In this document: piece after piece, positions 1,804 to 60,145 of the stretch
Position numbering within the stretch: the stretch's first letter is position 1
Layout of the letters: each line of letters begins with the position of its first letter
NCBI GenBank assembly: GCA_964016885.1
Contig: OZ024743.1
Location: 207,390,001 to 207,454,000, forward strand
DNA: 64,000 nucleotides
Source of the DNA: Eledone cirrhosa
Lineage: Eukaryota
Reading direction: 5' to 3'
Notes under the pieces: model-generated
Databases searched by the model: none
Seen by the model: the letters and a program-made list of their open reading frames with translations, nothing else
Told to the model about the DNA's origin: nothing
Made by a program: the position numbers and the translations under genes

Positions 1804-3141
1804 ATATATATATATATAATGAAGGAAGAGTGGTAAGGAACCAGATGGACCATAATGCACCAAAGTACTCAATACTATATATATATATATATATATATAT
1901 ATTTGGCAGGGATTTCAAGAACAGAGATGTCAATGATTTTCTACCTAACTCTAATTAGGAAATAGCAAACAAGCCTTATGCAGTAGATTAAGGGTCAGCT
2001 CTTTAGCCTATCTCAAATGGCTCAAACACTCTGATGTTTTTATTCATTTATATATATATATTTAAAATTTTATTTAATCTGCATCACCTAACACCTCGGT
2101 AATACAAGCTGCCAATGATGACAAGAACTTCACTGTCAGCAGCCCAACTCCACCAACGGCTCTAGGCTCCAACGTGACATGCTGGAAAAATAGTTATTTG
2201 ATAGTCCCCACCCCCACCCTGGTATTTATGATATGTGTTCATATTTGTATTTATATTTTCATTCTGTAAGAACTATAAACAATATGTAATGTTTTGTTGT
2301 TTGTTTTGATATGTAGCAGGATGGGATTTGAACTCAGCATATTTCAGTTCAGAAACTGGTTTTCTCATCAACAATTTCTATATCCACCTCTAGCACACCT
2401 TGGTTGTATTTGTCAGCCAATAATGAATCTATATTGATTTCTTGTATACAATTGTGTTAATAATTATGACAGTAGATTGACAGTCATTAGAGCATTGGAC
2501 AAAATGCTTTGTACCAGGGTTGATAAAATAAAGTACCAGTCATGTACTGGGTTCAGTGTAATCAACTTTCTCTTCCTTACAAATTGTTGGCCTAGGACCC
2601 AAAATTAGAAATAATTTTTGTTTATAATAAATTATGTGGCTCTGATAGTCTCAATTATTTTGGCGAAGGTAGGCCAGGCTAAAATGGCTCTTTATATTGA
2701 AAAGTCCTGTTCAACCCATGCCAGTATTCAAAAGTCAATGTAAAAATGATGAGGATATACCCTTTAAAACAAGCAGTATTGTATCATAGAACCGGAGGTG
2801 GTTCAGATAGTTTGGTGTAAAAAGTCGAAAATATAAAGTATTATTTTTCACTTTTTCCTTTTTCTTTATTCAAGGTTTCAAGGTTACATTATAAATTATG
2901 AGTTGGAGAGTTCCTGGAACTGTGAGATTGTTCTGTAATCAGGTGGGATTTTAGTGTTCAACATATAATCTAATGAGAAACTCAGTGAAACCCAGTAGAG
3001 CTTCTGTAAAAGCCATGTCTACTGGAGACCTGCTCTCATATATCACCTACCAGTGTCACCTTACCATTGAGAAATTTGTCACAAACACAATGTTGTGTTT
3101 GACATCCGCAAAGCATTTAACCCTCTAGTGTTTGGCATATA

Positions 3142-3460
3142 GTGAAGGCTTTGTGGTTAGGGTATTCGGCTTACAATCGTATGGTTGTGCTTGATTCCTG
3201 GTGGTGCATTGTGTCCTTGAACAAGACACTTTATTTCACATTGCTCCAGTCCATTCAAGTGGCAGGAATGAGTTGTACCTGTGGTTCAAAAGGTCAGCCT
3301 TGTCACATTCTCTGTTGTGCTGGATCTCCCTGAGAACTACATTAAGGGTGCACGTGTTTGTGGAATGCTCAGCCACTTGTATGTTAAATTTACGAGCAGG
3401 CTGTTGTGTTGAATGGATCAACTGGAACACTCATCATCATAACCGACGGAGTGCCTCAGT
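3142..3460 (+). mobile_element. Old tRNA-derived SINE (family 2)
   Basis: tRNA-like head gtggttagggtattcggc followed by tgtgtccttgaacaagacactttatttcacattgctccagt; related copies at 34700-34850 (+), and more distant ones at 13860-14110, 55440-55615 and 57495-57730 (-). Confidence 0.6.
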
Positions 3461-4254
3461 TTGGAACATAAATCTAAACTGAGCTGTCTGTTTCTTGGAT
3501 CAAAAGTATTCTCATTACATATGCTGATAGAGTTTTCTTTGACCCACACACCATCCATCAACTCTTGTGTGTGTCTCAAGGTTTGATTATATCTCCCACA
3601 TTTTTTCTCTTCTAAACATAAACAATCTCTTTGCTATCATTGCCAATGATAGCCACTTCATTTCTTGCCACTTGCATACAGAGGTTTGGGGATGCTTGGG
3701 GCTAACACCTTGATTGTATGCCCCTAAAACTCAAGTATAGGGCTTTTTTTTATTTGAGCAAAATTTTAGGTGGGCACTTGAGAAATCTAAGTGGGCACAG
3801 CCCTGTAACCATATTGAATGGAGATTTTGTTATGTTCCAAACACTGAAAATGGTAGGATTAGGGTTACTCTTGATGAAATCATAGAAGTATTTTGGGCAC
3901 TTCAAACCTGGTGGAGTTTATCACCCCTCCAGATCAGAACACAGCTTATTTCTTCTAGAGGAGGGGAGTAAGAGAGGGGGCGAAAACAGAGAAGTGAGAA
4001 ATGGATATTGATGAAAAATCACCCCCAGTATTGAACTGGTTCTATTTTATCAACCTGGAAAGGATGAAAGGCAAAGTTAACTTTAGGTGGGATTTAGTAC
4101 AAAAACCTCAATGAATACCATAAAACATTCTGTCTGATGTTTTAACAACTCTGCGCTGGTTATATTACTTGATTATTTTGGAAATTATTTGAACATCATA
4201 TGTAGTGTCTTTCATTGGAAATATAAGGAAAGGGCTAAAGAGTTTGATAATGAT

Positions 4255-7103: not shown

Positions 7104-8525
7104 GTAGCAGAGACTTCTGGTGTTCTTGGCCCTAAGACCACCTCCCTACTCACCACCATCGGCACAGAGTTGGCTACCTATAGCAGTAGAGATTTCTGGT
7201 GTCCTGAGCCTTAAGACCACCTCCCTGCCCACCACCATTGGCACAGAGTTGGCTACCTATAGCAGTAGAGATTTCTGGTGTCCTGAGCCTTAAGACCACC
7301 TCCCTGCCCACCACCATTGGCACAGAGTTGGCTACCTATAGCAGTAGAGACTTCTGGTGTCCTTGGCCTTAAGACCACCTCCCTACTCACCACCATTGGC
7401 ACAGAGTTGGCTACCTATAGCAGTGGAGACTTCTGGTGTCCTTGGCCCTAAGACCACCTCCCTACTCACCACCATTGGCACAGAGCTGGCTACCTATAGC
7501 AGTGGAGACTTCTGGTGTCCTTGGCCTTAAGACCACCTCCCTACTCACCACCATTGGCACAGAGTTGGCTACCTATAGCAGTAGAGACTTCTGGTGTTCT
7601 TGGCCCTAAGACCACCTCCCTACTCACCACCATCGGCACAGAGTTGGCTACCTATAGCAGTAGAGACTTCTGGTGTCCTTGGCCTTAAGACCATCTCCCT
7701 ACTCACCACCATTGGCACAGAGTTGGCTACCTATAGCAGTAGAGACTTCTGGTGTCCTTGGCCTTAAGATCACCTCCCTACTCACCACCATTGGCACAGA
7801 GTTGGCTACCTATAGCAGTAGAGACTTCTGGTGTCCTTGGCCTTAAGACCACCTCCCTACTCACCACCATTGGCACAGAGTTGGCTACCTATAGCAGTAG
7901 AGACTTCTGGTGTCCTTGGCCTTAAGACCATCTCCCTACTCACCACCATTGGCACAGAGTTGGCTACCTATAGCAGTAGAGACTTCTGGTGTCCTTGGCC
8001 TTAAGACCACCTCCCTACTCACCACCATTGGCACAGAGTTGGCTACCTATAGCAGTAGAGACTTCTGGTGTCCTTGGCCTTAAGACCACCTCCCTACTCA
8101 CCACCATTGGCACAGAGTTGGCTACCTATAGCAGTAGAGACTTCTGGTGTCCTTGGCCTTAAGACCACCTCCCTACCCACCACCATTGGCACAGAGTTGA
8201 CTACCTATAGCAGTGGAGACTTCTGGTGTCCTTGGCCTTAAGACCACCTCCCTACTCACCACTATTGGCACAGAGTTGACTACCTATAGCAGTGGAGACT
8301 TCTGGTGTCCTTGGCCTTAAGACCACCTCCCTACTCACCACCATTGGCACAGAGTTGGCTACCTATAGCAGTAGAAACTTCTGGTGTCCTTGGCCTTAAG
8401 ACCACCTCCCTGCCCACCACCATTGGCACAGAGTTGGCTACCTATAGCAGTAGAAACTTCTGGTATCCTTGGCCCTAGGACCACCTGACTACTCACTACC
8501 ATCAGCATGGAGTTGGCTACCCACA
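7104..8525 (+). repeat. 79-bp minisatellite, about 18 copies
   Basis: Unit tagcagtagagacttctggtgtccttggccttaagaccacctccctactcaccaccattggcacagagttggctaccta; unit starts at 7181, 7260 and 7339. Confidence 0.95.
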
Positions 8526-8983: not shown

Positions 8984-9096
8984 ATAACCAGAAACTGATC
9001 TTGTTCATTGTGCTTCCGGTTTGCTTGGCTGTCGTGGCATTTATTGTGGTGGCCATTTTAGTACGTTGCTTTCGGAGAAGAAAAGCAGCAACGCAG
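8984..9096 (+). CDS. Host gene exon: transmembrane helix plus basic stop-transfer
   Basis: Acceptor ttttcctcttatgtttcag (8983); NQKLILFIVLPVCLAVVAFIVVAILVRCFRRRKAATQ; donor CAG|gttgaa; starts phase 1, ends phase 0. Confidence 0.85.
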
Positions 9097-9569
9097 GTTG
9101 AATATTTTTTGTTGTTTCGATTAATGTATGAACAAGAGGATGATGTAGTTTGCTTGACACATCGTGTAAAATGTAGAAATTAGTGTTTTATTAGAAGGCT
9201 ACCATAATGCAAAAGGGATAGTAATTGTTAAAATATAACAAAGATGTTGCGATGTTATCTTACACTTGTTTAATGATCCTTCTATTTTATGATAAGATCC
9301 TTTTAGTAAAGAATAATTGAAGAAACTAATTTAAAAATGTCAGCGCATTCCTCCATTATTCTTTTAATGAAATTATTTTATCCCAAAATATGGGGACCAT
9401 TAAACAACTCCAAGGTAACATCTTATCATGTTTGTTATTATATTTTTATATTTTTAGCCTTCTAATAAAACCCTATTTTCTAATGTATGAATGTATGTAT
9501 GTAAAGGGGGTTATACAAAGGAATGAGGAGGAGGGCTATGCTCTGGGGGAGAAATTGTAATTGCATTAT

Positions 9570-14958: not shown

Positions 14959-15073
14959 GCTCGCCGTGTGATTCCAGATTTATGGATTCACCACAGCCAG
15001 GAACTACCTCTTTATGCTGTAGAATGTCCATTAAATGACCCACAAGGTGAACAACTGTCATCTCCAAAAGCTG
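14959..15073 (+). CDS. Host gene exon with DCC/neogenin P1-like motif
   Basis: Acceptor tgtcttttccaattgcag (14958), phase 0; ARRVIPDLWIHHSQELPLYAVECPLNDPQ(GEQLSSPKA); two phase-1 donors, AAG|gtgaac after 15046 and CTG|gtaatg after 15073. Confidence 0.8.
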
Positions 15074-15164
15074 GTAATGATAAAAATATTTGTCACAAGA
15101 TCTGTTCATCTGCTTTTCCTTTCATGCAACCAAATGATCAGAGGATTTAGTTCATGATCATTAA

Positions 15165-15385
15165 ACCTTTATCATTTACATAACTCTATATACAATATTG
15201 TATTTTCATGGTAAAGGCTTTACCATACCTAATTATCTCATATAATATTGAATTTTTGAGATTTTGATATTATTTATTTTGAGAACAATACCTTAACATC
15301 AGTATGAGGGGCCAGTTACAGCCAATTTGAACAGAAAGAGGTGAAAGAATTTTGACTGGATACGGCCGGTTTAAACGCTAAAGGG
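15165..15385. mobile_element. piggyBac-type MITE
   Basis: ttaa-acctttatcattta...taaacgctaaaggg-ttaa; same family as 24118-24349. Confidence 0.7.
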
Positions 15386-16139
15386 TTAAGTTGTGTGTTT
15401 GATTATTGGACCAGGTGGGGCATTGCACCTGATTGCAAGACACTTCATTTCACATTATTCTGCAGAAAAAATAGTTTTAATGATAAATTGTACCTCTTCG
15501 TCTTTATTGCAATAATTATGTTTTTATTTTGTTTATGGTTAATCCAGCCATACTGGACCAGGACATGTGTTTTATTCTGAAGCAAGACATTTCATATTAC
15601 TTTCAGGCTGGATTAAGTCCTTTTGAGGCTCTAAGCACTTAAAACATTATAGTGCCCTCTTCATCATCATCATCTTCCCTTATATAAAGTCTGCAAAAAA
15701 AACCAAAACAATTGAATGACAAATACAATTAATTTGAATAAAATGATGCCCCTCTCCCTTCATGCCCCTCTTCCCTTGATACCCTAAGTACATGATTATT
15801 TTGTTTAATGGTTAATTGGCCCTTGTTAAAATAATTGTTTCTACTTTTGGCACAAGGCCAGCAATTACCCAGTGCATTACTGGTACTTTATTTTATTGAC
15901 CCCGTAAGGATAAAAGGCGAGAGCAAGCAGTTAGGGTTTAACTCTACAATAGACTGACATCCAGGCCAGTAACTGTGTGTGGGAGGAAGAGTGTTGTACA
16001 CTCAGTTCCTTAGCACCAAGGAAACCAGCATAATCTCCAGCCTGAAAAGCTTCTAGGTTTGGGATATACATTGAATTAACGTTTTCTTTCATCACAGATA
16101 TCTCATCAATAATTCTATAATTACTCAAACCATCTAACT

Positions 16140-16570
16140 TTCTATGGAACCTTCCCTACCAATTAATCTAGCCATCAATCACATCCCCATTACATATGTG
16201 ATAGAGATGTGAGCCTCTATTATCCTGTCTGTTAACCTAACTCCCAATCACCCCCCACCTCACCCCACCTCTCATCACAGGTACAGTGTGATGGAAATGT
16301 AAGCTGCTATTATTCTACAATTCTACCTAAGTTGTTGGTTAATTTAACCCCTAACAACATCTCTATCATGTAGACTGTGATGGGGATGTGAGCCCTTATT
16401 ACTCTACAATTTTACCAAGCTGTTTGTTGATCTGACCCGTAATTACATTGCCAGTCACGTGGACAGTGTGATAGAGATGTGAACCCCTGTTGCCCTACAA
16501 TTCTACCTAAGCTGTTTCTAGATCACATCCACATCACGTGGGACATTGTAATATAGACTTGAAGCAGACA
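16140..16570 (+). repeat. Degenerate ~80-90-bp tandem repeat, about 5 copies
   Basis: Recurring gtgat(a/g)g(a/g)(g/a)atgt(g/a)a(g/a)c...tattattctacaattctacctaag motif. Confidence 0.55.
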
Positions 16571-16657
16571 ACCCAGCTTCCTCTGGTAACATTATCAGTG
16601 TTATGAAAATCTACTGTAAATCTTCTGAAAATAGAAAAGGTCAAACAAAAGAATGCT

Positions 16658-16978
<321 letters not shown>

Positions 16979-17022
16979 AACAATATTAAATAAATGGAAA
17001 ACTATATTTATAAAACCATATT

Positions 17023-17088
17023 TATTTCATTATATATATTTCGGGGATATCATATTAACAATATGCTATGCCTTCATCAGACAAAATA
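17023..17088 (-). ncRNA. Type I hammerhead ribozyme (left arm copy)
   Basis: Reverse complement of 18454-18519. Confidence 0.65.
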
Positions 17089-17451
17089 CAATATAAACAG
17101 TTTTATAGATAAATATATTCGACATACCGTAATAAACATCAACTTCATTTGAAGAGGTTTAGTCTAGCAGTGAAAATACAGAGAGAAAGAAAGAGAGAAA
17201 GAAAAGAGGGAAAAAACGAAAGAAAGAAAGACAGAACGAAGAAAAGGAAGAAAAAGAAGAAAAAGAAAAAGAAGAAATGCATGGAACAAAATAGAGAGAT
17301 GGAAAAATAGATAAAGTGAAGAGCTTCATGTAAAGAGACAGAAAGATATATATATATATAGAGAGAGAGGAAATAGAGATAGATACATATATATATATAT
17401 AGAAAATTAGGTAGTGGGAGGTCATTTTGAGTAAGTGTATCAATGATACAT

Positions 17452-17486
<35 letters not shown>

Positions 17487-18453
17487 GCTCAAGTATTAAT
17501 GTAAGGGAGATATATAGAGAGATATAGAGAGATATAGAGAGATATAGAGAGAGAAAAAAATTTAAAAATATCCAGACATATTCGAGGCGTAGAAAACCCT
17601 ATGTTTTAATGTATTAGTATTTATAAAACTTACACTACACTGTAAATATCAGTATTCCTGAATGAAACAAGTATTCACAATGTGTGAAAATTGATTATCT
17701 TATGTTTAGTTTTAAAAATTCATATGTCTATGTGACAGCTACAAATCTCAATGTGAATCCAACTGATTCACTTCGCAAACTCTAAGTTATCGGAAAACAT
17801 TCTCAATGTGGTATAAAAATTTGAGCGTATTATTATTCTTGCGATTACTCTACAAGATTATCTATCAAGCAGAAATAGAGAGCAGATTTCAATATACTAA
17901 TCGAAAATATATATTATATTATAAACATAATAATAAGTAAAAATATAGAATAGAAAACTAAAAAAATATTACGAAAGAATATTACATAATAAAAATATTG
18001 CATATTAAAAATACTACGTATTAAAAAATATTACGTATTAAAGATTTACATATAAAAATTTACATATAAAAATATACATATAAAAATTTACATATAAAAA
18101 TTTACATATAAAAATATATAAAAATATAAAAAAAAAAAAAATATTAAAAAAAAAATAAATAAAATAAAAATAAAAATATTATAGAATACTACAATACTAA
18201 AAGAATAAAAGTAAAAATAAAAATAAAAATAAAAATAAAAATGAAAATAAAAATAAAAATAAAAATAAAAATAAACCACAAAAAAACAACCCTTCAAAGT
18301 TAATTGACAATATATTGCCACGTTCACTACAAGACAAAGCCAAAAATTATCTATCAAATCACATCTAGCAAAGAATATCGTAAAAAAATTCAAATGAAGT
18401 TGATGTTTATTACGGTATGTCGAATATATTTATCTATAAAACTGTTTATATTG

Positions 18454-18519
18454 TATTTTGTCTGATGAAGGCATAGCATATTGTTAATATGATATCCCCG
18501 AAATATATATAATGAAATA
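18454..18519 (+). ncRNA. Type I hammerhead ribozyme, minimal palindromic stem III
   Basis: Stem I tattttgt/atgaaata; CTGATGA at 18462-18468; imperfect stem II ggcatagcatatt-gtt-aatatgatatccc; GAAA at 18500-18503; stem III atatatat; UA cleavage site at 18510-18511. Confidence 0.65.
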
Positions 18520-19583
18520 AATATGGTTTTATAAATATAGTTTTCCATTTATTTAATATTGTAAATATACTCCAAATATTTGTCGAGTGCTTTTATATCA
18601 GTTATAAATATTTACTAGTTGTAACCCAACAATTTTAAATATAACTTTACATGTATATATTTATATATATATTTATATATATATATATTTATATATATAT
18701 TTATATATATATATTTATATATATAATATATATATATGTATATATATATAATGTGGAAAGTACTATATGAAAGAAGGCTGAAACAATGCATGTAAGATGA
18801 AGGCAACAAAAATGTTAGTTACCTCGTAATCTTTGTTTTCAAAGTGAATAGACCGGAATGTTTTTCCCCTGAGAGTTCCTTATACTCTGAAAAAGGGAAT
18901 TTTAAGTCCTGGAATATTAGGATAAAGGAAACAACAACAAAAGAAAACGATGATTACCAGGTAACTAACTTTTTCATTGCCTTCATCTTACCATCCATTT
19001 TGCAAAGTTTAGTCTTCTTACGTATATCACTTTCCACGTTATATATTATATACAATGTTTGAAGCAAACTACAACATTTTGTTATATATATATGTATATA
19101 TAAAATAGGTAGATATAATATCATGTTGAGAACAGTATATTGTATATATGTGTGTGTGTCTATATATATATATATATATACTAGATGTCTAGCCAACATT
19201 GTTTGAGAAAAAAAGAGAAAGATTTTGCAATTTCAGTTATTTTTTGGTTATTTTTCCTTCATTTAACTTTAACCTTAAACCCTGAACTTAAAATGTAAAC
19301 ATACACCATAAAGCTTAAATCCTTTAAACCTTAAATCAGAACCTTAATCTCTGCATCCTGCATTAGAGTTGGGTATTGCTGAAACCATGCCTGAATAGAA
19401 TAAATTACAAAAATACTGTATCAAATGTATATTGTTTAATGCAGGTGTGGGCAAGGTGGTGTGGTTAAGAAGGGCACGTCATAGCCATATGGTTGTAGTT
19501 TTAATTAGGTTTCTTTTATAGTAGCCTAAAGTTTACCAATATGTTGTGAGTGAAATTTTGAAAATGGATCTGTATATGTTTGC

Positions 19584-19624
<41 letters not shown>

Positions 19625-19954
19625 CATCACCATTACCATTTTACGTCCATTCTTCCATGCTAGCATGGGTTAGACGAGTTGTCCAGTTGTGGACAATGAC
19701 AGGTCAGGTGACCATGTCTTGCTCATACAGAACTGATTTTGGCTTGATTTCTACAGCTGAATGCCCTTCCTAACACCAACCCCATTTACAGTGACTACTG
19801 TGTGCATTTTATCGTGGCACCTACAGAACCACTTACAGTGTGGACTGGGTGCTTTTTTGTCATGACACTGCACGACCACTTTACAGTGGAAGGGGATGGG
19901 GCCATATTGTCTATATGCTTCAGCTTTGGCTTGTACCCGTATATATATATATAT

Positions 19955-20660
19955 ATATCTAAGAACGTAGATTTTATATGTGGCCGATGCTCAGGTGCAA
20001 TAAGTAGCAAGTGCCCTCAGGATACTAGCTCTTTCTATTGCCCAGATGGTTCTATAGAAATGGTGGACACCTTCCGTTACCTGGGTGACAAAATCAGCAG
20101 TGGTGGAGGGTGCTCTGAAAGTACAGTAGCTAGAGTCAGAACAGGATGGAAAAAGTTCAGAGAGCTAATACCACTATTGGCCACTATAGGTTTTTCTCTA
20201 AAAATGAAAGGCAGATTGTCTGATGCCTGTATACGAACAGCAATGTTACATGGCAGTGAAGACCCGCCTTGCCTATGTACAAAGTGAAATCTACAGTCAG
20301 TAGGCACCTCTTAACCAAATATATACACCTATTGCCCCCACTTCCACCAACACCTCCCTTTCTCCGTAAAGTTATGTTGGTCCCACAACATCCAGTCCAA
20401 AATAAATGAGGTTGTGTAGGTGTCACGACAAAAAAAAAAACATACAGTCCACGCTGTTATGTAGGTAACATGGTAAAAACTTCCCAGTCCACACTGTAAA
20501 CGTGGTTGGTGTTAGGAAGAGCATCCAGCCGTAGAAAACCTGCCAGACACTCCTATACGAGCGAGACATGCTGACCCGACCAATCTTGCCTCAAGTAGGA
20601 CAATTCCCATCTAAACTCATGCTAGCGTGGAAGATAGATGTTAAACGATGATGATGATGA
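19955..20660 (+). mobile_element. 5'-truncated, internally deleted RTE LINE (subfamily A)
   Basis: KNVDFICGRCSG...RVRTGWKKFRELIPLL...MLHGSE jumps directly to the ORF end (gacccgcc), then 3' UTR and (gat)n; an opposite-strand RTE tail is adjacent at 19625-19935. Confidence 0.85.
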
Positions 20661-23412
20661 TATATATATATATATACTTTGGGAGTGTCATGCTGCCAGT
20701 AAAAACACATGCGCCTGTTGGATTTCACTTCAATTTATTATTATAGTTTCCCAGTCAGTTTATTTAATAACTGGATGGTTGTTTAGTTGTTGATTGTCAT
20801 CAAAGCTCTTTTGTCACACATACTGTGACCACCTCAGTGACTATTTGTGTTGTTATTTCGTGTCTCTCCTTTGTTCTGTCTCACACCATCTTATTTTTGT
20901 GAGCTGTGTACTTGGACTGTGCATGTGTGATATCTGGGTTTGTGTGTGTATGTGTGTGTGTGTTTATTTATTTAATTTTTGAAATATATATTTTTTTGTT
21001 TATTTATACATTTATTTTATTTATTTTCTCTCATTCCTTGTCATTACTTGGTTACTTGTTCTATCTGTGTGGGTCTGGTTTATTTCATTAGTTTAGTTCT
21101 TGTATGTCTTTATATATCCTTAGTTACTACGTTGTGGGGTTGTTGCTATTCTACTTGTGCTTTCTATTTAGTTTTGGTCAGAGTTCGTTTATGTTTGTCA
21201 CTTCAGTAATCTGCCAGAACATAGCATCTGTTCAGTGTGTGGATATAATTTTTATCTCGATGTTCTTCAGTGAGTTCCTATGTTCTATTATGGCATGTTA
21301 GTGGAGTACTGATGATTTTTTCTCAACTTGGAGTACTCACAGGTTAAGCCCACAAATTAACTGTAAAACTGGGAATGTAGTATATAGCATAAGATGCATG
21401 GAGGGTCAGTGTTGGAATAGGAACAAGACATACTTAGGTGGCCCATAGCATAGGAGAAAGGATAAAAGAACACTGGCAAGAATTCCAATACACTAGTTCA
21501 AACTTGCAGAGAGTATATCTCTCTTCTTACATATATGTATCTATATAGTGAAAAAGCAACAGACATATATAGGACAGAGAGAGAAGGAGAGAGAGAGATG
21601 GAATGATGGACAGCCAACAGAAAAATACATTTTTTTCTCATAACTTTCTTAATAATGTATATTTTGCAGTGAGACTTTTTCAAAGGTGCAGATACCAAAT
21701 ATGTTGATAAAGTTAATACAAAAAATTTGATATTTTCACTTGTGGAAACTGCTGATTTTAAAACAAAGGATTATCAACTTTTATTTATAAAAGACAACTT
21801 GTTTATTTAAACACAATTTATATAATAAATATGATTTAAGAAAAAGATAAAAATATGCACACACACACACACATACTCCTCTTACATTCCAACCTCTTCA
21901 TTCTCCAAATTTTGTTTTTTCCTCATGTAGGACTAATGTTTGAGACATTGAAACATTCTTATTTCTTTTTTCGACAAGTGTGAAATTAATAAGATTTTGT
22001 ATAATTCTATTTCTTTGTTTGTCTAGTTTATTTTGAAATATGATAATGAAAATTATTGTGTGCAGTGTTCAGGTGCACTACAACTCATCAAGAGTGCATG
22101 TATAGTACATAGAATAATAATAATCATCATCATCATCATTGAATGTGTGTTATTTTGGTTCGAGTTTTGCCACCTGTTGCCCGTCTCTGGCATGTTTTAT
22201 TTGGAAATTATTTCTAGATATTGTAAAGTCAAACACTTTGAGTTTACAAAAGAAACTGCCATAAATTTCTGGCTCTCAGGGCCGGTTTTCTTTTCTTTTT
22301 ATTGGAAATTATTTTCAAAATGCCATCAAATTTGGTGGTGAAAATTAACAACATGAGGAGGAGAGGGATTGCAGGCTGTGCCTTTCTCTCCCTCAATAGC
22401 AGCCATTTTCTGACATTGACAGTGGCAGTCACTACTCACATGACCAACACTACTGCCAGAATAACAGCAAAGACTAACACTAGGAGAAATAAAACAAAAC
22501 AAAAGGACCAAAATGAAAATCTGTTTTTTGGTGTTTTTTTAACACAAAAGAAAATACATGTTTGATGAAAACAGATGAAATCAATATAACCGACACCACC
22601 ACCACGACCACCACCACCACAACAACAACACTAACGATACCATCACCACCACCATGATCACAACAACAATAAATGTGAGAGATCACAGCTCTGATACTAT
22701 GACATCACACAGAGAAATCACAGCACCAAAACTATGGACATGTGGTTAGAATGTCTCAGGAAAGAATTGCTGGACAGATTTTACAGGCAAAACCAATAGG
22801 TAGGAGAGCCAGGGGTAGACCCTGAACAAGATGGTTGGATTACATCCATGAGCTCGGCTGGTCACGCTTGGGGATCCAGCTGGATCAGTTGGAAACGGTT
22901 ACTTCTGACAGGACATTCTGGAAGGAGTGTTTGAGGACTCTGCCCTCATGACCCTCTCAGAAATAAGTGGGTGAAGAAGAAGTTATTATCGATTCTGTAT
23001 ATTCTGGATTCCCATGCTGCCTTCTCTCACCAGAAAAAAAACAAAAACATTTTGATAGGTGCTGCGACTGACAGAAAGAATCAGCAATGGGAAGACTAAT
23101 AGAAACACAGTTTCCTTGGTCCACTCTAACGATCTGCCCTTTTCTTCTTTGTATATCATAAAAAAAACAGAGGTGGTTTCAGGTGGGTGGGTTGGCATCT
23201 AAAGAGATAAAAGAAAATTTGTCTTGCACGTCCAGTCAAAAGACATCCTTATAAAATTTGTTTTTGAGATCTATCTCTCCTTTATTAACCATTCCCTTAT
23301 TCTGTGTGTTATATAATCCTACATTCTAGAATACTTCCTTCTAATATTCCTAACAGTGAAGACTCTAGATTTTAGAAGATTCCTTAGTATTATATTCTCA
23401 TCTGTTTTGTAG

Positions 23413-23592
23413 ATTTCTCAACAATATGTGAAGTACTGCAAACCTATGTACCCCAGTCCCCTAAGGAAATCCACCTTGAAAAGGGAGAGTTCTTAAAAGT
23501 TGTTGAGAAAGACTCCAATGGGTGGTGCCGAGGGGTGATGGGCACAAATATTGGCTGGTTTCCAGGCAGTTTCGTCAAAGAGATTAGAACAG
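23413..23592 (+). CDS. Host gene exon: SH3 domain (absent from the ORF track)
   Basis: Acceptor tctgttttgtag, donor CAG|gtaaat, 180 nt, phase 1-1; DFSTICEVLQTYVPQSPKEIHLEKGEFLKVVEKDSNGWCRGVMGTNIGWFPGSFVKEIRT fits the SH3 pattern (..Y.....E..L..G....V......GW..G.....GWFP..FV). Confidence 0.92.
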
Positions 23593-24068
23593 GTAAATTA
23601 TAAATACTCATAATGTATGGTTGATGCATGCATTTTGTTTGTGCAATGTTTTATTAACAAGTCTTGCCTGCAAGAATATGGAATGGTAAAACTGCTACAG
23701 CTTCTCAATCATATCTGCAACTAATTCACAATATATTAACTGGTTTTGTACCCTGGGGTCGGGCTGCCTATGCTCTGAATTCAAATCCTGCTGAGGTCAA
23801 CTTTGCCTTTTATCCTTTCGGGGTTGATAAAAAAAAAAATAAAAAAAAATACCAGTCTAGAACTGGGGTCAATTCTTTCTTATTTCCTCTCTATCACACT
23901 CCCTCCTCTGGAAGAAATCAGCTGTGTTCAGACCTGGAGAGAGGATGAGCTTCGCCAGGTTTTAAAAAAATACCCAAAAGATGTGTACATCATTACAGAG
24001 CCTCTAAAGATCCATCACGAGTGACAGGTCTACACATTTATACATAGTTTTTACTGCTTCTTTTTCAG

Positions 24069-25592: not shown

Positions 25593-27977
25593 CTTCAGTT
25601 TGTCTAGCTTAGGGATTCAACTGGATTATTTGGAGACGATTGCTTCTGATAGAACCTTTTGGAAAAAGAAGAAACAGAAGAAGATTACAGCAGTTCTATT
25701 TTCTTAGTGTAACATCTGATATTTCTAATACTCTATAATCCCAGCATGTCATGTTTTTCTAATTATTAGATCCTCCTCTTCACTAACATATTGTATTTCA
25801 ATCTCACCCATGTCATAACAACATGTATATGACAAACCCATAACTTACTAATTCCTTACTGCTACATTTTTGTAATTAATATATACACATATATGTATAT
25901 ACGTCTGATTAAAAGGCTTTGTGGTGTTTGTTTTTGCTCTCTGCATTTTGTGTTCAAATCCTACCATGGTCAACTTTGTCTTTCATACTTTTGGTTTTGA
26001 TAAATAAAATAGCAGTCGAGGTCAGAGGATTGGTGGAATCACTGACCAATATCTCTTTCAGCCTTTCACATTCTGAGTTTACCTGCAAAATCACAGGTGT
26101 GAAGCTGTCTTAGTCATTGCCTTTACCTGGGACAACATTGGTGGCATTGAGAGGGGAGACTGGTATGTATCAGCAACTGCTGGTCTTCTACAAACAACCT
26201 TGCTTGGACTTGTGCATGGGAGGGGAACTTTCTAGGTGCAAATCCCATGGTCATGTGTGATTGAAGGGGATTTTTACCTTTATATATATATCAACTCTAT
26301 GATTACCTATATCAAATGTTTTTGTCATCTCACATGTATAACTTGCTTGATCTGTTATTCACACATCTTTTTCTTTTTCTTTTTCTTCTTCTTCTTCTTC
26401 TTCTTGAGTCAACCTTCCATCGAAGGTCAAACATTCATTTTTCATTTTGCTTTTTCTAATGGCTAGAATATATGCAGTTCACCACATCTGCAGTTCACCA
26501 CATCTGCAGTTCACCACATCTGCACAGATATATACACATATATTCACACACACATAAACACACATTCTACATTTTTTTTTCGCCTCTATTCTTTCTTTTC
26601 TTCTTCTCTCTCTCATTCTATCTTCTGATGAAGGACTAACATCTGAAATGTGAACATACTTTTCCTACTATATCAAGCATTAAACTGTTATATATATATA
26701 TATATATCATCATCACTGTATTATATTGTGCTCCTGTGTTATTGGTTCCTCTCTCTCTCTCAAACACATACATAAACACACACACACGCGCGCACGCACG
26801 CACACACACACACATATGTTTCAACACATGTTTTCATATAAAGATCTTGCAATACAAAAACGAAATATATATTCAATATATATATTCAAACTACTCACAG
26901 AATACGTGAAAAACATTATTAATATTTAATAAGATTATCTTATACCAATGAAAACCGGTTATGTTTAATGCCAAAATTATAAAATTATTCATTCTGTCAA
27001 ATAAAAGAAAAAAATAATCTTTAAATATACTTCTGTGCTATTTCACCTTCACAACTATAACCTTTGTTTTGTATGGGACTTTACTCCCTTTTTCTACAAA
27101 TATAATTTAAATATATATATACATATATATATAATGTTCTTTCTTCTGGCGTTTTTTGCTTTCTTTTACTTTTTTCTTTCTTTACCTCCTATTTTTCACG
27201 AGACTACTGATGCTATAAAACGACACTACCTTCTCCTAGTCATCACATAAAACTCTGTGTATGTGTTATGGCTTGACTGCTATAAGTTAATGTTTTGTCT
27301 TGTCTTTTAATCCATGGACAGCACTTTGGCTTGTGTCAGACGTTGTGACTTTGGGTAGACCAGCAGTACCGTTGGTAGAGGTTGAAACTGCCAGAAGTCC
27401 ATCTCGACAGCTGAAGACTTTGGAGTTCTGCGTCTTTTGCTTGTCTTTTTTTTAAATACCAACATTTTAAAAAAAGTTTTCCCCTCCAAAAAAATTTGTT
27501 GCCTTTTCCTTTGTCATTTTCTCTTTGTTAATTTTCTTAATTTTATTATATATATATATATTTATATATATATATATCATCATCATCATTTAATGTTCAT
27601 TTTCCATGCTAGCATGGGTACATATATATATATATATATATATACTTAATACATTAACAGAGAAAGCTTAAAGCGTTACCCCGACCGTCTCCCATCTCAC
27701 TCACCAAACATTAGGATATAATACCTGAGTATTATCCCAATTATATGTTTGGGGTGCTAACTATATTGTATTACGTGGATAGTTGGTTGTATTATTTTAT
27801 ATGAGACATAATTAAATAAATCTCTCTTTCCATACGATCGTTTCGTTATAAGTTTTCTACAAATTGGGAAAATAATGTCCGGGTTATGTAGAAGCTTGCA
27901 TATAGTCCATAGGTATACATACAAGTGGGCACTTATAATTCATCAGTGGATGCCCAGGCAATATCAATATATATATA

Positions 27978-33060: not shown

Positions 33061-33216
33061 TACACACATATGTATATACACATATGTATATACACATATA
33101 TATTTATATATATATACACATATGTATATATATATATATATATAGGAACAAGTAAGACCCCCGACGGCTGAGCTCAAGCCGTTTCGACGGCTAATTCTGA
33201 ATTAGCCGTCGAAACG

Positions 33217-33416
33217 NNNNNNNNNNNNNNNNNNNNNNNNNNNNNNNNNNNNNNNNNNNNNNNNNNNNNNNNNNNNNNNNNNNNNNNNNNNNNNNNNNNN
33301 NNNNNNNNNNNNNNNNNNNNNNNNNNNNNNNNNNNNNNNNNNNNNNNNNNNNNNNNNNNNNNNNNNNNNNNNNNNNNNNNNNNNNNNNNNNNNNNNNNNN
33401 NNNNNNNNNNNNNNNN
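33217..33416. other. Assembly gap (200 N)
   Basis: Direct observation. Confidence 1.
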
Positions 33417-34625
33417 CATTTTCACATCATGCAGATAATATACGCTCACGGCGACGTTGGAGTGAGTAAAGTTTCAGGTTTCCAATCGACCCAGTAGTCA
33501 AGGTCTGACATGCATCTATCTTTTCGTGATTGCCCTTTGAGGAGCTTCAAGTTCATGATACTTTGTTTCGTGTGGGGGAGACCACAGTGGACAACAGTAT
33601 CAAGGTGTGGTCGGGCGAAAGTAGAGAAGAGAAGGATAATGGTGCGGGAATCTCTCGACTGGAAGGTTCTGAGGATCCAGGAACACATTCTGCGGGCCAT
33701 GTCAACTTTGCTGCTTATATGCGTGGTCCAGCTTATGTTGCTGTCCACGGTTACTCCCAAGTCTCTGATGTTGTTAGATGCCACGAGAGTTTCCCCGGAG
33801 GGAAGGGAGTACGGGAGTTTCAGAGCATCCCTCTTTTCCAAGTGGATCAGTTCGAATTTGTCTTCGTCAGTAACATGTTGTTCTTTTCTGCCCATTGGGT
33901 AACAGCCAGTAGGTCTGACTGAAGGCTTATCCGGTCATCCACGCCATTGATGACCTTTTGGAGCTTGGAATCATCAGCGAAAATTTTAATGTTGCTGTGT
34001 TGATGATGTCAGTGATGTCATTAATATTAGATGATGAGAGAAGTGGGCCCAACACAGTGCCTTGTGGGACTCCACTACTGACTTTGGCTGGGCTTGATTT
34101 GACTCCCTCAACTACAACATGTTGGGTTCTGTTGACAGGAAGCTCTTGATCACTGCAGCAGCTTTCCCGTGACACCAATATTGGACAGCTTTCTCAGTAG
34201 AATGTTATGATCAACCCTGTCAAAGGCCTTGCTGAAATCAAGGTAGATAACATCAGTGTTGGAACCCTCTCCCAAGGGCTCTCAAAATGTCATCAAAGTG
34301 ATGCAGTAGTTGCGTCAGGCAATCCCTTCCATTACGGAATCCATGCTGGTTGGAGTTCAGCATATTGTTACTCTCAAGGAAGTGGGTCATTCGCGATCTC
34401 ACCACTCGCTCAAATACCTTAATGATATGAGAAGGTGAGTGAGATTGGACGGTAATTCACGGCAAGGATTTGTTTCCCTTTTTGAAAAACTGGGACAACA
34501 GACTGGGATAGAAGGTTTTCTGGCACATATCCAGCCATCCAGTGAGTTCCGCCACAGATTGGCAAGAGAGAAGCTAGTTGGTGTTGACACGCCTTCAAGA
34601 CACAAGCAGGGAACCTATCGGGACC
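33417..34625 (-). mobile_element. CR1/L2-group LINE RT fragment, heavily frameshifted
   Basis: NYRPISLT, VSSGVPQGTVLGPLL, DLGVTVDSNISWTTHI, LFSTFARPHL. Confidence 0.85.
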
Positions 34626-36919: not shown

Positions 36920-38575
36920 CACCTTATTTCTAATGAAAGACACTACCTATGTCATTAACCCTTTCATTACCATATTGCTAATAAAAGACACTACCTATGT
37001 CAATAATCCTTTCATTACTATATTTCTAATGTAAGACACTGTCTATGTCATTAACCCTTTCATTACCATATTGCTAATAAAAGACACTGTCTATGTCATT
37101 AACCCTTTCATTACTATATTTCTAATGAAAGACACTGTCTATGTCATTAACCCTTTCATTACTATATTTCTAATGTAAGACACTACCTATGTCAATAATC
37201 CTTTCATTACTATATTTCTAATGTAAGACACTGTCTATGTCATTAACCCTTTCATTACTATATTTCTAATGTAAGACACTGTCTATGTCATTAACCCTTT
37301 CATTACTATATTTCTAATGAAAGACACTGTCTATGTCATTAACCCTTTCATTACTATATTTCTAATGAAAGACACTGTCTATGTCATTAACCCTTTCATT
37401 ACTATATTAACTTTGCCTTTCATCCTTACGGGGTCGATAAAATAAAGTACCAGTAATGTACTGGGTAATTTTCTGGCCTTGTGCCAATAGTAGAAACAAT
37501 TACTATATTTCTAATGTAAGACACTGTCTATGTCATTAACCCTTTCATTACTATATTTCTAATGAAAGACACTGTCATTAACCTTTTCATTACTATATTT
37601 CTAATGTAAGACACTGTCTATGTCATTAACCCTTTCATTACAATATTTCTAATGAAAGACACTGCCTATGTCATCAACCCTTTCATTACTATATTTCTAA
37701 TGAAAGACACTGTCTATGTCATTAACCCCTTCATTACCATATTGCTAATAAAAGACACTACCTATGTCAATAATCCTTTCGTTACCATATTTCTAATGAA
37801 AGACACTGTCTATGTCATTAACCCTTTCATTACTATATTTCTAATGAAAGACACTGTCTATGTCATTAACCCTTTCATTACTATATTTCTAATGAAAGAC
37901 ACTACCTATGTCATTAACCCTTTCATTACTATATTTTTAATGTAAGACACTGTCTATGTCATTAACCCTTTCATTACTATATTTCTAATGAAAGACACTG
38001 TCTATGTCATTAACCCTTTCATTACTATATTTCTAATGTAAGACACTGTCTATGTCATTAACCCCTTCATTACCATATTGCTAATAAAAGACACTACCTA
38101 TGTCAATAATCCTTTCGTTACCATATTTCTAATGAAAGACACTGTCTATGTCATTAACCCTTTCATTACTATATTTCTAATGAAAGACACTGTCTATGTC
38201 ATTAACCCTTTCATTACTATATTTCTAATGAAAGACACTACCTATGTCATTAACCCTTTCATTACTATATTTTTAATGTAAGACACTGTCTATGTCATTA
38301 ACCCTTTCATTACTATATTTCTAATGAAAGACACTGTCTATGTCATTAACCCTTTCATTACTATATTTCTAATGTAAGACACTGTCTATGTCATTAACCC
38401 TTTCATTACTATATTTCTAATGAAAGACACTACCTATGTCATTAACCCTTTCATTACTATATTTCTAATGTAAGACACTGTCTATGTCATTAACCCTTTC
38501 ATTACTATATTTCTAATGAAAGACACTGTCTGTCATTAACCCTTTCATTACCATATTGCTAATAAAAGACACTGA
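36920..38575 (+). repeat. 48-bp minisatellite, about 32 copies, interrupted by a SINE fragment
   Basis: Unit actatatttctaatgaaagacactgtctatgtcattaaccctttcatt. Confidence 0.95.
37408..37498 (+). mobile_element. 5'-truncated SINE family 1 inserted in the minisatellite
   Basis: SINE core flanked by duplicated attactatatt (37398-37408 and 37499-37509). Confidence 0.85.
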
Positions 38576-41033: not shown

Positions 41034-44000
41034 CTACAGGCTGAGGTAGAGAGAAGGCCCATTCACACGGGCCATTCTTGCAACTTTCACCCACCTTTCA
41101 TAAAACTGGCTGGGGTGCAGCACCTCTCTCTCCATCCTGATCCTTCTTCCGAAATGGTATCGGAAGAAAAGGACCAGTTGTTGGCCGGAAAGAAAGGTGT
41201 CCGACCTCAGCCCTTTCAGACGCGTCCACCATATAACCTCTTTTACCATGGCTATTACACAGAGGAAGACCGCCTCTCCTTCATTTTTGATGGGGGGAGG
41301 CGGCTTGATCGTTACAATGGACTCGGTGGTCAACCTAATTGGTCCCACCCATGACAGCAGTTGTTCGACATAGCCCCACAGATCGGCAATGCCCGGGCAG
41401 TGCACCAATGCGTGCGCGACGGTTTCCTCATCGCGCACGCATCTGGGACAGATCTTTTACGAGGGGTCCCTACCCGGGCGCCCGTGTCTGTAGAGCTTAT
41501 CCCGAACGGGCAGAGCCCCTCGGTAACACTGCCAGGCCAAGGACTTCTGGAAGTTGTCCATAGGTCCCGGGACGAAAGTCCTACCGAATAGACTGGCCAG
41601 TTCGTCCTCCTCCATGCCTAGGGTTTCTCCGAGGGCGCCGTCGCATCCGCTAACCACCAGCCCTCTATAGAATGACAAGGTGGAGTCTCCATCGATAGCC
41701 GGGTCCGCCTGCCAGAGAGCCGTGAGCACCTGGGCACACTCGGTGTGCCAGTCGCCCAGTTTTCTCGGTCTTTGCTTCACCCAGGACTGCAGCTCAGTGA
41801 GCGAGACGAGCCTCGGGAAGGCTCGCCTCACAAACTGAAATAAAAGGAAATAAAAGAGGGCGCGCTCCATTTTGGCGAGGATCTCACCCGGGCAAGGCAC
41901 GACAGTCAAGCGGTAATAGATGACGGACGCTATGTAAGCGTTCGCCACCTCCGCCCGACCTTTCAGGGATATTTTGCACTCGGCCCACTTCTGGGTCAGT
42001 GCAAACACCCTATTCGTCACCTCACCCCAGTTTTTCTCCACTTGGAGGTCCTGTCCGAACCAGACTCCAAGCAACTTCACTGGGCCCTCCATCTACCGTC
42101 CAATGATACCGTCGGACGACATCGCTTTGCCCCTCCACTCGCCGAGTTGCAAAGTGACTGACTTGTCCCGGTTCAGCTTAGCCCCTGTCAACCTTTCGTA
42201 CTCCTCCAGTAAGGTGCCGATTGCCTCGATTTCCGAGGTGGTCGACAGCATTACTGTTACGTCATCGGCATAGGCCGACACCGCTTTGCGCAATCCCGGT
42301 TCCAAAGGGATGCCTGCAACAACTCCAACTTCCGCAGTAGTGGCTCGAGAGCCAATACATACAGAAGGGAGGAGAGAGGGCACCCCTGTCGGATGGAGCG
42401 GGTGATTTCGAACGGCTCCGAAAGGTAGCCGTTCACCTTGACTCTAGAGCAGATGCGGCTGCTGTGCATGGCAGTGATCCAGCCCCTGAAAACGGGTCCG
42501 AACCCAGCCGCCGCTAGCACCGCATCCAGGTAACCATGGTCCACCCTATCGAATGCTTTAGACTGATCTAAATTTATCAGGGCCCCACCAAAGCCGGATT
42601 CGTTCCCAACCCTCTCTATGATGTATCGCATGAGGTGGAGGTTGTCGTGGATGGACCTGGACGGGATAGCGCATGTCTGCGCATCTCCCACCAGGCCCCC
42701 CACGACAAGCGCCAATCTCTTCGCTAACACCTTGGCCAAAATCTTTAACTCTGCATTTAGCAGTTATGGGCCTAAAATTACTAATGTCATCCCCCTTGTT
42801 CTCGTCCTTCCTCACTAGCGAGACTACACCCTTGGTCACAGAACAGGGAATTATCCCATTCTGTTGCCAGTTGCAGTAGACCGCCTCGAGGAGATCGGGG
42901 AACAAGTCCGGCATATTAATATATAGTTCGTAGGGTAGACCATCGAGCCCTGGAGATTTGCGTTTGCCGCATAGGCTCAGCACGTCCCCTATTTCAGCAG
43001 CTGAGATCGGCCCATCACAGGACCTCGCCTCCTTGTCCGAAAGACGCGGCAAGCCATCGAGGTATGGACCGAAATCCACATCCCCAACCGGCCCCCCGCC
43101 CCTCCCGAACAATCGGGCAAAGTGCCTTTGAAAGGCCTCGCACATTTGCTTAGGTTCAAGGATCAACCGTCCATCCTGGTCTCGCAAAGACCGGATAGTG
43201 GATTTAATCCCACTTTTCGCTTCTGTCACGTGGGCCCAGCTAACAGCTTTGGTCCCCTCGTTTCCCAGAGCACGTATTTTGCTTCGGACAATGCAGCCTT
43301 CGTGTTTCGCGTCGAAGAACTGGTTCAAGACCGTTCTCGACGCTTGCACTCTGGCCACGTTGCCGCTTCTCATTGCCTCTTCAACATTAACTTCCAACTC
43401 CCTTTCCTTCCTATTTCTATCTGAGGCTAACTCCTTACTAACTCCTATTGAAACTACTCTAATCTCTCTTTTTAGAGAGCCCCACCACCTGCTGTTGACG
43501 ATGGCGCCCGTCAACCGCTCCTTAACTAAAGTTCTAATCCGGTCCCTGTAAGCTCTACTTGCCGGTAAGGACAAGTTGAGCTTCCAGTAACCGGGCCCCT
43601 GCCTATGCGTTCTATCAAGGTGGACTACGCAGGTCACTAACTTGTGGTCTGAATAGCCCACCATGAGCATTTCTGGACAACTTAAAAAGTCCCTATCCTT
43701 AATTCTAACTAAGAACCTATCTAGGTACGATCTAGATTGACCACTGTTATTTGACCAAGTCCAGGTTGGCACAGTCGGAAAATCTAGTCGGTATCTATCG
43801 GCCAGGTCAAATCGGCCGATTAACCCCTTAAGGCTGTTACACCCCCCTCTATCGGGACATGCCCCTACATAGTCCCAACGTGCATCTAGGATACCATTCC
43901 AGTCCCCCACTAAAAGCAAGGAGCGGGACGTCCCTAGAAAAGTCTCCAGACGATGGAAGAAGTCCGACCGCATTGCCCCAAAAGGGGCGTATACGGCGAC

Positions 44001-44320
44001 AAGCCTAAAAGCTTCGCCTTCACCATTGCCAAGGTCCAGAACCACGAGTCGACCCTCCGGGTCCAAGTGTACTGTCTGTGTAGCGAGACCCAGATGTTTT
44101 TGCAGCAGAACAACCACACCCCCACCTCCGGGCTGACAGAGAGATGCGTGCATCTCAAAGTCATCAAAGGTGGGGCTAGCTGTCACATGCTGCTGATCCG
44201 GGCCTCGCAAATAACCATCACATTTATACATTGTGACCTGAGGTCACTTAGAAGTTTAGCTTGCTTCCAAGGTGAGCCCAGGCCACGCGCATTTAGACAA
44301 CCTACTCTTAACACAGCCAT
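41034..44320 (-). pseudogene. LINE ORF2 (APE endonuclease + RT), several frameshifts
   Basis: Start MAVLRVGCLNARGL; LVAVYAP, VGDWN, SYLDRFL, SDHK, GPGYWKLN, KSPGLDGLPYELY, LDQSKAFDRVDH, RQGCPLS, SAYADDVTV, EETVAHALVHCP. Confidence 0.9.
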
Positions 44321-44794
44321 GTTGGTGGCAAAGAAAGAGGCACTTACCTCTCTGCGTCCCGGGGTTTGGGCCGCTCAGTTTCCATGGGGCTGGTGGAGGG
44401 GTTGATGGGTGGGGTGGTGGTTTGTGGTGGTGTGGGGGTATTAGTGTGTGTGGAGGGGTTGGGGCGTTTGGAGTTGTGTGGGTGTTTGAGGAGGGGAGGG
44501 GAAAACCTTTCAGGAGGACGCGGTTGAGTGGCCTGGTGCAGGGTGGTCCCATGTCCTCAGGGTAAATGTTTTTCAAAGTTTTGAAAATGTCAAGTGGGAC
44601 TTTCACCATTTTCAGGTTAGGGAGTCCCATTGCCGTTACAAAATTCGGCCCTTCGGTTTGTACCGAACGGTTGTTTTCTATTTTTTCTGTTAGGTTTTTA
44701 TTGTTTTTGTTTATGTATGTGTAGAGTTTTTGTGTTGTTTGTTTTTGCTTGTTGTTCTTGAGTGAGTTTGCGTTTTGTTGTCTGTGTTGTGTTG

Positions 44795-46102: not shown

Positions 46103-46984
46103 TTCTGAATTAAATATTTTTCACCCCAAAAGGCGTGAAAATATATTTACCCTACGTTTCTTTCCACATACATATGTGGTTAAATTCAGTACTTTTCCAT
46201 TACTTGAACTTCCTTGCTGGAGAGGTTTTCATCAAATGATATATTGATGGTGATATATTGACCTCTGATGATTGACTTTCTGGCAAGAGAATTGAAATAA
46301 TAAAAAAAAAAAAAAAGACCTAGTTAACTTTAACAATAATCTCCACAAATAAACGCACGTTTGACAAAATTATATATTTCCAACTCTATTTAATAAAACC
46401 AAAATATATCAGTAGCTGTCGCCATTTCTTCTAACAAAGATCACATTTTGTTTTTCCTTCCAGCATAAAAATTTAATTTTCAGTGAAGCTAATTCTCAAT
46501 TTGTTGAAATTACCTCCTATTTCTTTGAGAATTACCACCAATTGCTGTTCAATACATTGGAAAAATCTTTATCTACACCATTTAGTACCTAATTTAAGCA
46601 GCAATATTATTTTAACTCTGTTAGGTGTATTGTGCAGTCTTTGCTTTGTTCATTGTGCTTCTTGCAGATATAATACCATATCATCATCGTTTTTATTTCC
46701 GTTTTTCCACACTTGGATGGGTTCTTCTCAGAACAGCATCTCTTCACTTGCCACGTTTCTTTGTCATCGCCTCTGAGTCTCAGTGATCTAAGGTCAGCTC
46801 TCACCACCTCTGCCCAGATCTTCCTTGGTCAACTTCTACTGCAGCTTCCACTGAGTTTTCCTGGCACTTCTTTACACATCAATCATCTTCAATGTACATC
46901 ACATGTCCGTACCAACAAAGTCTTTTCTCCTGCACAACATCTCGGATTCCTCTTAAACCTAGCCTCTTCTTCAATTCATCCAAG

Positions 46985-59979: not shown

Positions 59980-60145
59980 ATCATCATCATCAGCATCATC
60001 GTTTAATGTCCCTTTTCCACGCTAGCGTGGGTTAGACGGGCTGTCCCATTAGAGGCAAGTCAGATCAGGTGACCATGTTTTGCTCATATAGAACTGTTTC
60101 TGGCTAAGTTTCTAAGGCAGGATGCCCTTCCAAACACCAACCAGT

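Follow-up and report, generated by a model that had tools for sequence, protein, structure and literature searches.

An inverted, one-tailed Penelope-like insertion in an intron of Eledone cirrhosa and the ends of its family

The insertion and its surroundings

The window analysed here is a stretch of 64,000 nucleotides from Eledone cirrhosa (assembly GCA_964016885.1, contig OZ024743.1, forward-strand positions 207,390,001 to 207,454,000), in which three exons of a host gene, all with AG/GT ends and matching phases, are accompanied by an inverted insertion with a hammerhead motif in each of its arms (Table 1). The host gene encodes an uncharacterised single-pass transmembrane (TM) protein, in which a cytoplasmic SH3 domain comes after a PDLWIHH motif. 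Annotated Octopus and Argonauta proteins, which are 90-92% identical over the SH3 exon, join the PDLWIHH and SH3 exons directly, and the insertion therefore lies within the intron 15074-23412. A preliminary description of the locus had placed it between P1 and SH3 exons; the intron stands, its exons being real and adjacent in the orthologues, while the likeness to P1 is weak (Neogenin_C, E 0.029). At E 1e-8 the host protein has four matches, namely three octopod proteins and one unnamed, and assignment to DCC/neogenin was rejected, as the orthologues are without Ig and FN3 domains in Pfam.

The insertion was recognized by two inverted arms of 174 nt, said to be identical, about 1.2 kb apart and flanked by (TA)n, and all of this is exact: the arms (16980-17153 and 18389-18562) are 100% reverse-complementary with a spacing of 1,235 nt, and a (TA)n array lies on either side. 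Both ends of the insertion lie inside (TA)n, where a target-site duplication is not readable. The element had been taken to end at 18562, but the insertion continues to ~18652 with a 90-bp tail that had been missed, the right boundary of which is ambiguous up to 18656 owing to its likeness to (TA)n. The interior, described as non-coding and of low complexity, is indeed non-coding, and a tblastn search of the window with the parent protein returned no ORF remnant in the insertion; it is not filler, however, but the 3' UTR of the parent element (see below) on the minus strand. On the natural copy L052, the long copy corresponds to unit positions 2592-4033 (1,367 aligned letters, 45 mismatches), and a complex segment of 416 nt within it is 100% identical to a copy on another contig (L032/L064); the short copy is 100% identical to L052 over 264 nt. 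Since the unit ranges 2592-4033 and 3860-4123 overlap, the arms are the overlap of two truncated 3' ends, which start 1,268 nt apart on the unit.

Table 1. Host exons and parts of the insertion, in positions of the window
Feature	Position	Strand	Remarks
Host exon (TM)	8984-9097	+	
Host exon, PDLWIHH motif	14959-15073	+	phase 0 to 1; upstream of insertion
(TA)n target array, left	16659-16978	.	
Long 5'-truncated copy	16980-18388	-	last ~1.4 kb of parent (3' UTR and pseudo-LTR), without tail, stops at end site A
Left arm	16980-17153	-	portion of long copy mirrored by right arm
Hammerhead, type I, long copy	17023-17088	-	core start 17080, predicted cut after 17031; antisense to host gene
TCACT initiator-like motif	17169-17173	-	within 5'-end pile-up zone, unit 3836-3862
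Head-to-head inversion junction	18388-18389	.	blunt, without microhomology
Short 5'-truncated copy (right arm and tail)	18389-18652	+	pseudo-LTR, unit 3860 to end site B (4123)
Hammerhead, type I, short copy	18454-18519	+	sense to host pre-mRNA
Stem I of plus-strand hammerhead	18454-18461/18512-18519	+	
Core CUGAUGA	18462-18468	+	
Stem II	18469-18499	+	followed by GAA
Stem III, palindromic	18503-18510	+	predicted cut after A18511
90-bp tail	18563-18652	+	on short-copy end only; continues into the ORF start in full copies
(TA)n target array, right	18654-18750	.	
Host SH3 exon	23413-23593	+	phase 1; downstream of insertion

None of the reads and contigs listed over 18388/18389 bridges the junction, which is therefore given by the assembly alone, and four public runs aligned to 16980-18653 contain sibling-family variants and no piece across it. 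The region is also AT-rich and repeat-rich, so that an assembly artefact has to be considered as the source of the inversion; however, the unequal arms match the pattern of the family and end at its two fixed sites, which a chimeric read would ignore, and the probability of an artefact is close to negligible.

Several further repeats are found in the window. CTGA-N-GA...GAAA motifs are also present at 26625-26650 (+) and 33870 (-), the former of which is preceded by a pyrimidine tract and may represent the decayed hammerhead of a further Penelope-like family. A large inverted repeat occupies 47655-50916, with arms of 885 bp (48122-49006 and 49573-50457, 97%) and outer arms of 300 bp, and would give a longer potential duplex than the hammerhead insertion; the RT-coding fragments it contains look to us like those of an RTE-type LINE. 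The stretch 41034-46120 (-) holds a GC-rich LINE, by its motifs presumably L1/Tx1-like, the ORF1-like and endonuclease/RT frames of which are broken by stops and shifts, and 60073-62482 (+) holds a 512-aa RT frame with downstream pieces of another non-LTR element, which we take from its motifs to be R4/Dong-like. Two minisatellites (7109-8521, 79-bp unit x 17.9, 95% matches; 36925-38574, 48-bp unit x 34.4) and an assembly gap of 200 N within 33174-33497 complete the list.

The autonomous parent and its hammerheads

Copies of the element were located by pattern searches of the 3.0-Gb Eledone cirrhosa genome, which contains 10,755 matches to a 24-mer of the motif with at most two mismatches (5,351 + 5,404; control, 0), 3,526 to a 38-mer marking the young subfamily, 14,707 to a pattern for the sibling subfamilies, 11,143 to the tail pattern (at most two mismatches) and 541 to a 24-mer near the ORF start; the first four of these counts overlap and were not summed. 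The interior of the insertion is likewise high-copy. Its parent was traced in twenty larger loci chosen for long inverted pairs, where the interior is the 3' UTR of an element having a 738-aa frame. The full unit (locus L052) consists of a pseudo-LTR with hammerhead, the ORF, a long 3' UTR (~1.9 kb), a pseudo-LTR, the tail and (TA)n, and it measures ~4.1 kb because of the long 3' UTR. A Penelope-like origin and a young age had been proposed beforehand, together with a search for an autonomous partner with RT and GIY-YIG, and the pattern searches and fetched loci led to such a parent, with both in its 738-aa ORF, in the same genome; of the 61 full-length protein matches that were scored, as the best of 96,819 candidates, 55 lack a stop. 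Judged from its sequences, the family is young and likely still active. Partial tandems occur at L051/L052, L048 and L059, and inverted copies in most loci. At G000:C7:78452852-78463087 (-), three intact ORF copies stand in perfect tandem, ~4,011 bp apart, and form an array of the parent that is longer than one unit. More distant hammerhead families, with ATAT(A/G)TAT as stem III and other stems I and II, were chance finds at L202:4498-4939, L090:5071-5135, L008:2283-2353 and L040:2841-2910, and hence the genome holds a radiation of related elements.

In the 738-aa ORF we identified what we take to be the RT motifs QLDI, MGSSDS and YRDD and the nuclease motifs IVY...YVG. The predicted model of the protein (pLDDT 91.6) has telomerase RT as its best fold match (TERT 3du5, E 5e-10), and its nuclease domain gave no separate fold match; neither Pfam, searched with the ORF, nor a PDB sequence search with a 13-sequence profile of it returned a match, and the nearest database proteins, unnamed Argonauta ORFs among them, are ~40% identical. 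The protein carries the Hydra-type signature, namely RIRWR at 36 (with a conservative R for K), DKT at 119, the linker CNCRDRSKC at 597 (CxCX5C) and, near its end, CDLC at 695 (CxxC) and CKH at 722 (CxH) around the conserved E and N, with no CCHH in the nuclease and a single Cys between IVY and YVG, and the (TA)n targets and canonical hammerhead are further traits of the Hydra clade. By these motifs, and with the reference proteins compared by eye, the parent is assigned to the Hydra-type EN+ Penelope-like elements (PLEs), and the identity of the element can be regarded as very nearly certain.

Each arm contains a type I hammerhead as preliminarily described, with CTGATGA (at 18462 on the plus and 17080 on the minus strand), a mismatched stem II, GAAA, a palindromic stem III (ATATATAT in both arms) and a stem I of 8 bp, which is mostly A-U and G-U and includes two G-U pairs; the cut had been expected after 18511, and H17 is A18511 in the predicted fold. 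Covariation among genomic copies, suggested earlier as a check on the motif, was assessed in 36 hammerheads picked for diversity, out of 110 distinct motifs that the fetched loci contain. In this set, 90.6% of the 720 cells are paired in the hammerhead fold, with 107 both-side changes that fall on 5 of 8 pairs of stem I and 9 of 10 pairs of stem II. None of 500 shuffles reached this level and the slid controls were all lower, with the caveats that kinship of sequences can beat shuffles and that the core belonged to the search pattern of this set; two other measures were non-significant (23 and 253 of 500 shuffles). RNAalifold recovered stem II alone, and an Rfam scan of 15500-20000 returned low-complexity matches only and no hammerhead family. 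N7 is the sole common core variant in the tail-anchored sample introduced below, and the fourth position of stem II is a C.C mismatch in all 36 of the aligned hammerheads; when variants of it were sought, 11 matches and no covariation were found. The present subfamily has A.C beside the core and G.A where its siblings have A-U and C-G, and position 10.1-11.1 is A.C here vs A-U or G-C in the siblings, a bulged-A register with G10.1-C11.1 being possible. The active monomer fold is calculated at -0.9 to -3.0 kcal/mol with a stem I pairing probability below 0.07, and shuffles fold as well as the 265-nt sense copy (z -0.69), the lowest-energy fold of which differs from the hammerhead. From the comparison of copies, the hammerheads appear as passengers of the pseudo-LTR that are selected within the family.

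In the host pre-mRNA a sense ribozyme would be combined with its perfect antisense, as had been pointed out, and formation of the 174-bp arm duplex (-263 kcal/mol) is plausible; the dimer envisaged for cleavage, however, needs two sense copies, and as the hammerheads are on opposite strands, no dimer can arise within one transcript. In the available parts of a survey, metazoan minimal hammerheads are reported not to cleave as monomers and to cleave poorly as dimers (Cervera and de la Pena, 2014; PMC4209133). With a perfect antisense copy and no second sense copy at hand, the present hammerheads are predicted to be nearly silent. Regulation of the host gene, whether by cleavage at the sense hammerhead, by masking in the duplex or by antisense RNA from a promoter in the long copy, could draw on the real intron, the energy of the duplex and an initiator-like motif directed antisense to the gene, as well as on the more than 1 million hyper-edited sites of the octopus CNS and the heavy editing of a lizard Penelope (PMC5625713, in part). 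However, the copy is very young, thousands of like insertions exist in the family, the active fold is weak and the cleavage reported for such hammerheads is poor, so that a regulatory role is very improbable. As the same geometry occurs in a large share of the family's copies, the duplex is not special to the host gene, and by its predicted pairing it would be an ordinary ADAR substrate, without sign of a host-gene role.

Ends of the insertions and origin of the inverted layout

In the first 100 exact hammerhead matches of the listing, neighbouring motifs at distances up to 10 kb are outward-facing in 37 cases, inward-facing in none and on the same strand in 3; in 17 of the 37 the spacing is similarly short, at 154-194 bp. 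Together with the lack of an ORF and the identity of the arms, this spacing speaks for a non-autonomous unit that spreads as such with two hammerhead terminal repeats, be it retrozyme-like, as in the preliminary description, or a MITE-like fold-back. The interior of the insertion, however, is colinear with the parent's 3' UTR, the junction 18388/18389 is absent from every other fetched locus, the short palindromic copies have junctions that differ among copies, and retrozymes are same-strand tandem repeats in the text available (10.64898/2026.07.22.740005), unlike the present inverted pair. A unit with terminal arms is hence hardly credible, and the locus is instead read as a truncated and inverted insertion that arose once, from an autonomous family having intact genomic copies. 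A MITE or fold-back DNA transposon was also rejected, as the ends are asymmetric and the junctions vary between copies.

The ends themselves follow a rule across the family. From the first 100 listed exact tail matches, five internal tails before an ORF were dropped, leaving 95 tail-anchored insertions, of which 61 have an inverted arm stopping at site A (unit 4026-4045) and seven another inverted layout; in 27, no inverted arm was seen within up to 6.5 kb. Because this sample is anchored on the tail, hammerhead-anchored pairs were counted too. One tailed and one tail-less end are found in 12 of 13 such pairs of the present subfamily, the remaining pair being without any tail, and in all 19 pairs of the sibling subfamilies (by eye), which makes 31 of 32 in combination. 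In the tail-anchored sample, arms within one insertion differ at 41 of 9,596 sites (0.43%), vs 2.6% between insertions, and of 123 other arms only 3 match that of the window exactly. At diagnostic positions, the arms of an insertion agree in 369 of 373 cases, vs 68% when shuffled. Of 60 simple pairs, 21 have, as here, a tail-less arm that extends further toward 5', and 11 a tailed arm that does so.

The 5' ends are clustered as well: 62 of 151 fall within unit 3836-3862, around the TCACT motif, and single-arm copies also begin in this hot spot. No pile-up was seen at the predicted cut (3982/3983), with 1 of 151 ends within 5 nt. A splice acceptor at the hot spot (pyrimidine tract and AG, unit 3850) was disfavoured, as ends lie on both sides of the AG and have no common upstream exon. 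TCACT has been called Inr-like in rotifer pseudo-LTRs (PMC3846280, in part), and the pile-up near it likely marks the transcription start of the element. Some ORF-bearing copies extend far upstream of the hot spot, and read-through or circular templates therefore also exist.

With high probability, the insertion consists of two 5'-truncated PLE 3' ends lying head to head in intronic (TA)n, likely from one insertion event carried out by the reverse transcriptase-endonuclease of the family itself. The tail on one end, the common source variants and the 5' ends away from the cut suggest that uncut RNA is primed by both of the broken DNA ends, a scheme we infer from the insertion footprints alone. 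The GIY-YIG nuclease would nick both strands of the (TA)n target, and each free DNA end would start cDNA synthesis on the uncut RNA of the element, at site A for one and, 83-90 nt further 3', at site B for the other. The two cDNAs would then proceed toward the 5' end of the RNA; the short one would halt near the likely transcription start, the long one after 1.4 kb, and repair would join the two unfinished cDNA ends. Two separate primings are indicated by the pairs with a longer tail-less arm (21 of 60), as a tail-less cDNA cannot template the tail; one common source by the low divergence and the diagnostic agreement within insertions; and an uncut template by the distribution of the 5' ends between hot spot and predicted cut. 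Gene conversion subsequent to insertion could likewise account for the likeness of the arms. In vitro work on an anole PLE has described two RT start sites that flank the tail; both strands are cleaved and extended, a dimer is predicted and hammerhead cleavage is unnecessary (PMC11167929, available parts); a covarying hammerhead with few 5' ends at the cut fits the result that cleavage is unnecessary for insertion. Counting against the proposal are the 27 of 95 insertions without an inverted arm, the 7 of 95 with other layouts and the 1 of 13 pairs tail-less at both ends. On balance, two-ended priming is the reading we favour, with some reserve.

The inversion might instead arise by fold-back, or antisense self-priming, of a single strand on a palindrome close to the pseudo-LTR's 5' end, a model that has been proposed before and also predicts junction overlaps (PMC3846280, in part). 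Of 60 junctions, 8 are blunt and 17 carry inserts; an overlap of one letter or more occurs in 35, and in 20 it reaches at least four letters (local palindromes). In 19 of 60 pairs, the two 5' ends lie within 5 nt of each other; among the 26 pairs outside the hot spot the number is 5, against a permutation mean of 0.47 (p 5e-5). Both the overlaps and the close 5' ends speak for self-priming. It does not fit the present junction, which is blunt with arm starts far apart on the unit, nor the 21 pairs with a longer tail-less arm, which fold-back of a tailed, sense-templated cDNA cannot yield, and single-arm copies also start in the hot spot; we therefore consider it unlikely as the origin of the layout. 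Two-ended priming could be extended to the claim that both broken ends copy one and the same uncut RNA, every insertion being born palindromic with one tail; this stronger form is tentative and, in our estimate, more probably wrong than right. If true, the thousands of footprints would provide a genome-scale test of an open mechanism, and an active Hydra-type element would be a steady source of long perfect intronic duplexes in a heavily A-to-I editing animal.

Comparison with known systems

Taken alone, the insertion is routine debris of a known retrotransposon class and carries little weight. The family is more useful, as a young octopod Hydra-type PLE with many intact ORFs, the insertions of which are regular enough to test how inverted ends and tails are formed, a question that is named as open in the available parts of PMC8557442. 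Its thousands of intronic palindromes would, moreover, be natural targets for mapping octopus RNA editing to repeats. Inverted truncated copies, the one-sided tail, (TA)n targeting and minimal hammerheads have all been described previously. No description of the present family or of the counted A/B rule was found in the literature searched, the coverage of which excluded most subscription papers and Repbase, and neither hammerheads nor Hydra are mentioned in the available parts of PMC13282606.

Following the accessible portions of Craig et al. (2021; PMC8557442), the Hydra clade, which includes Hydra-1_Obim of Octopus bimaculoides, shares with the present family a single ORF with RT followed by GIY-YIG, the motifs RW(K/R) and DKT, a CxCX5C linker, the absence of CCHH, and a terminal CxxC and CxH. 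(TA)n targets are also shared, as is a type I hammerhead close to the 3' end, in which a position beside the core is often unpaired or variable, and an inverted 5'-truncated copy at the 5' end is listed for Penelope-13_HM. Hydra-1_Obim itself differs in protein and hammerhead, by comparison by eye with the supplement of that paper. The clade tends to less than 3 kb, which is a tendency and no strict criterion in the portions at hand, vs the unit of ~4.1 kb here, and further differences are tails of 30-40 vs 83-90 nt, RWK vs RWR and the invariant C.C in stem II of the present family.

The metazoan PLE minimal hammerheads are likewise of type I, with a long stem II and a palindromic stem III suited to dimers, and opposite-strand pairs of motifs 100-700 bp apart have been reported in Schistosoma (Cervera and de la Pena, 2014; PMC4209133, in part). 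The present hammerheads differ from these in their 8-bp stem I of mostly A-U and G-U pairs and in A.C at 10.1-11.1. The non-LTR retrozymes, as far as the source is available, are also non-coding, carry a type I hammerhead and derive from PLE pseudo-LTRs (10.64898/2026.07.22.740005), yet they form same-strand tandems, whereas the present insertion is inverted and colinear with its autonomous parent. A correspondence in layout is seen with inverted-pLTR insertions, which in the available parts of two studies share the head-to-head arrangement and one-sided tail (Arkhipova et al., 2013, PMC3846280; Craig et al., 2021) and, in the former, the TCACT initiator-like motif and palindromes at many junctions. 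In contrast to those insertions, the target-site duplication of the present copy is unreadable inside (TA)n, and the rule of one tailed and one tail-less end can here be counted in a high-copy family, in which it holds for 31 of 32 pairs.
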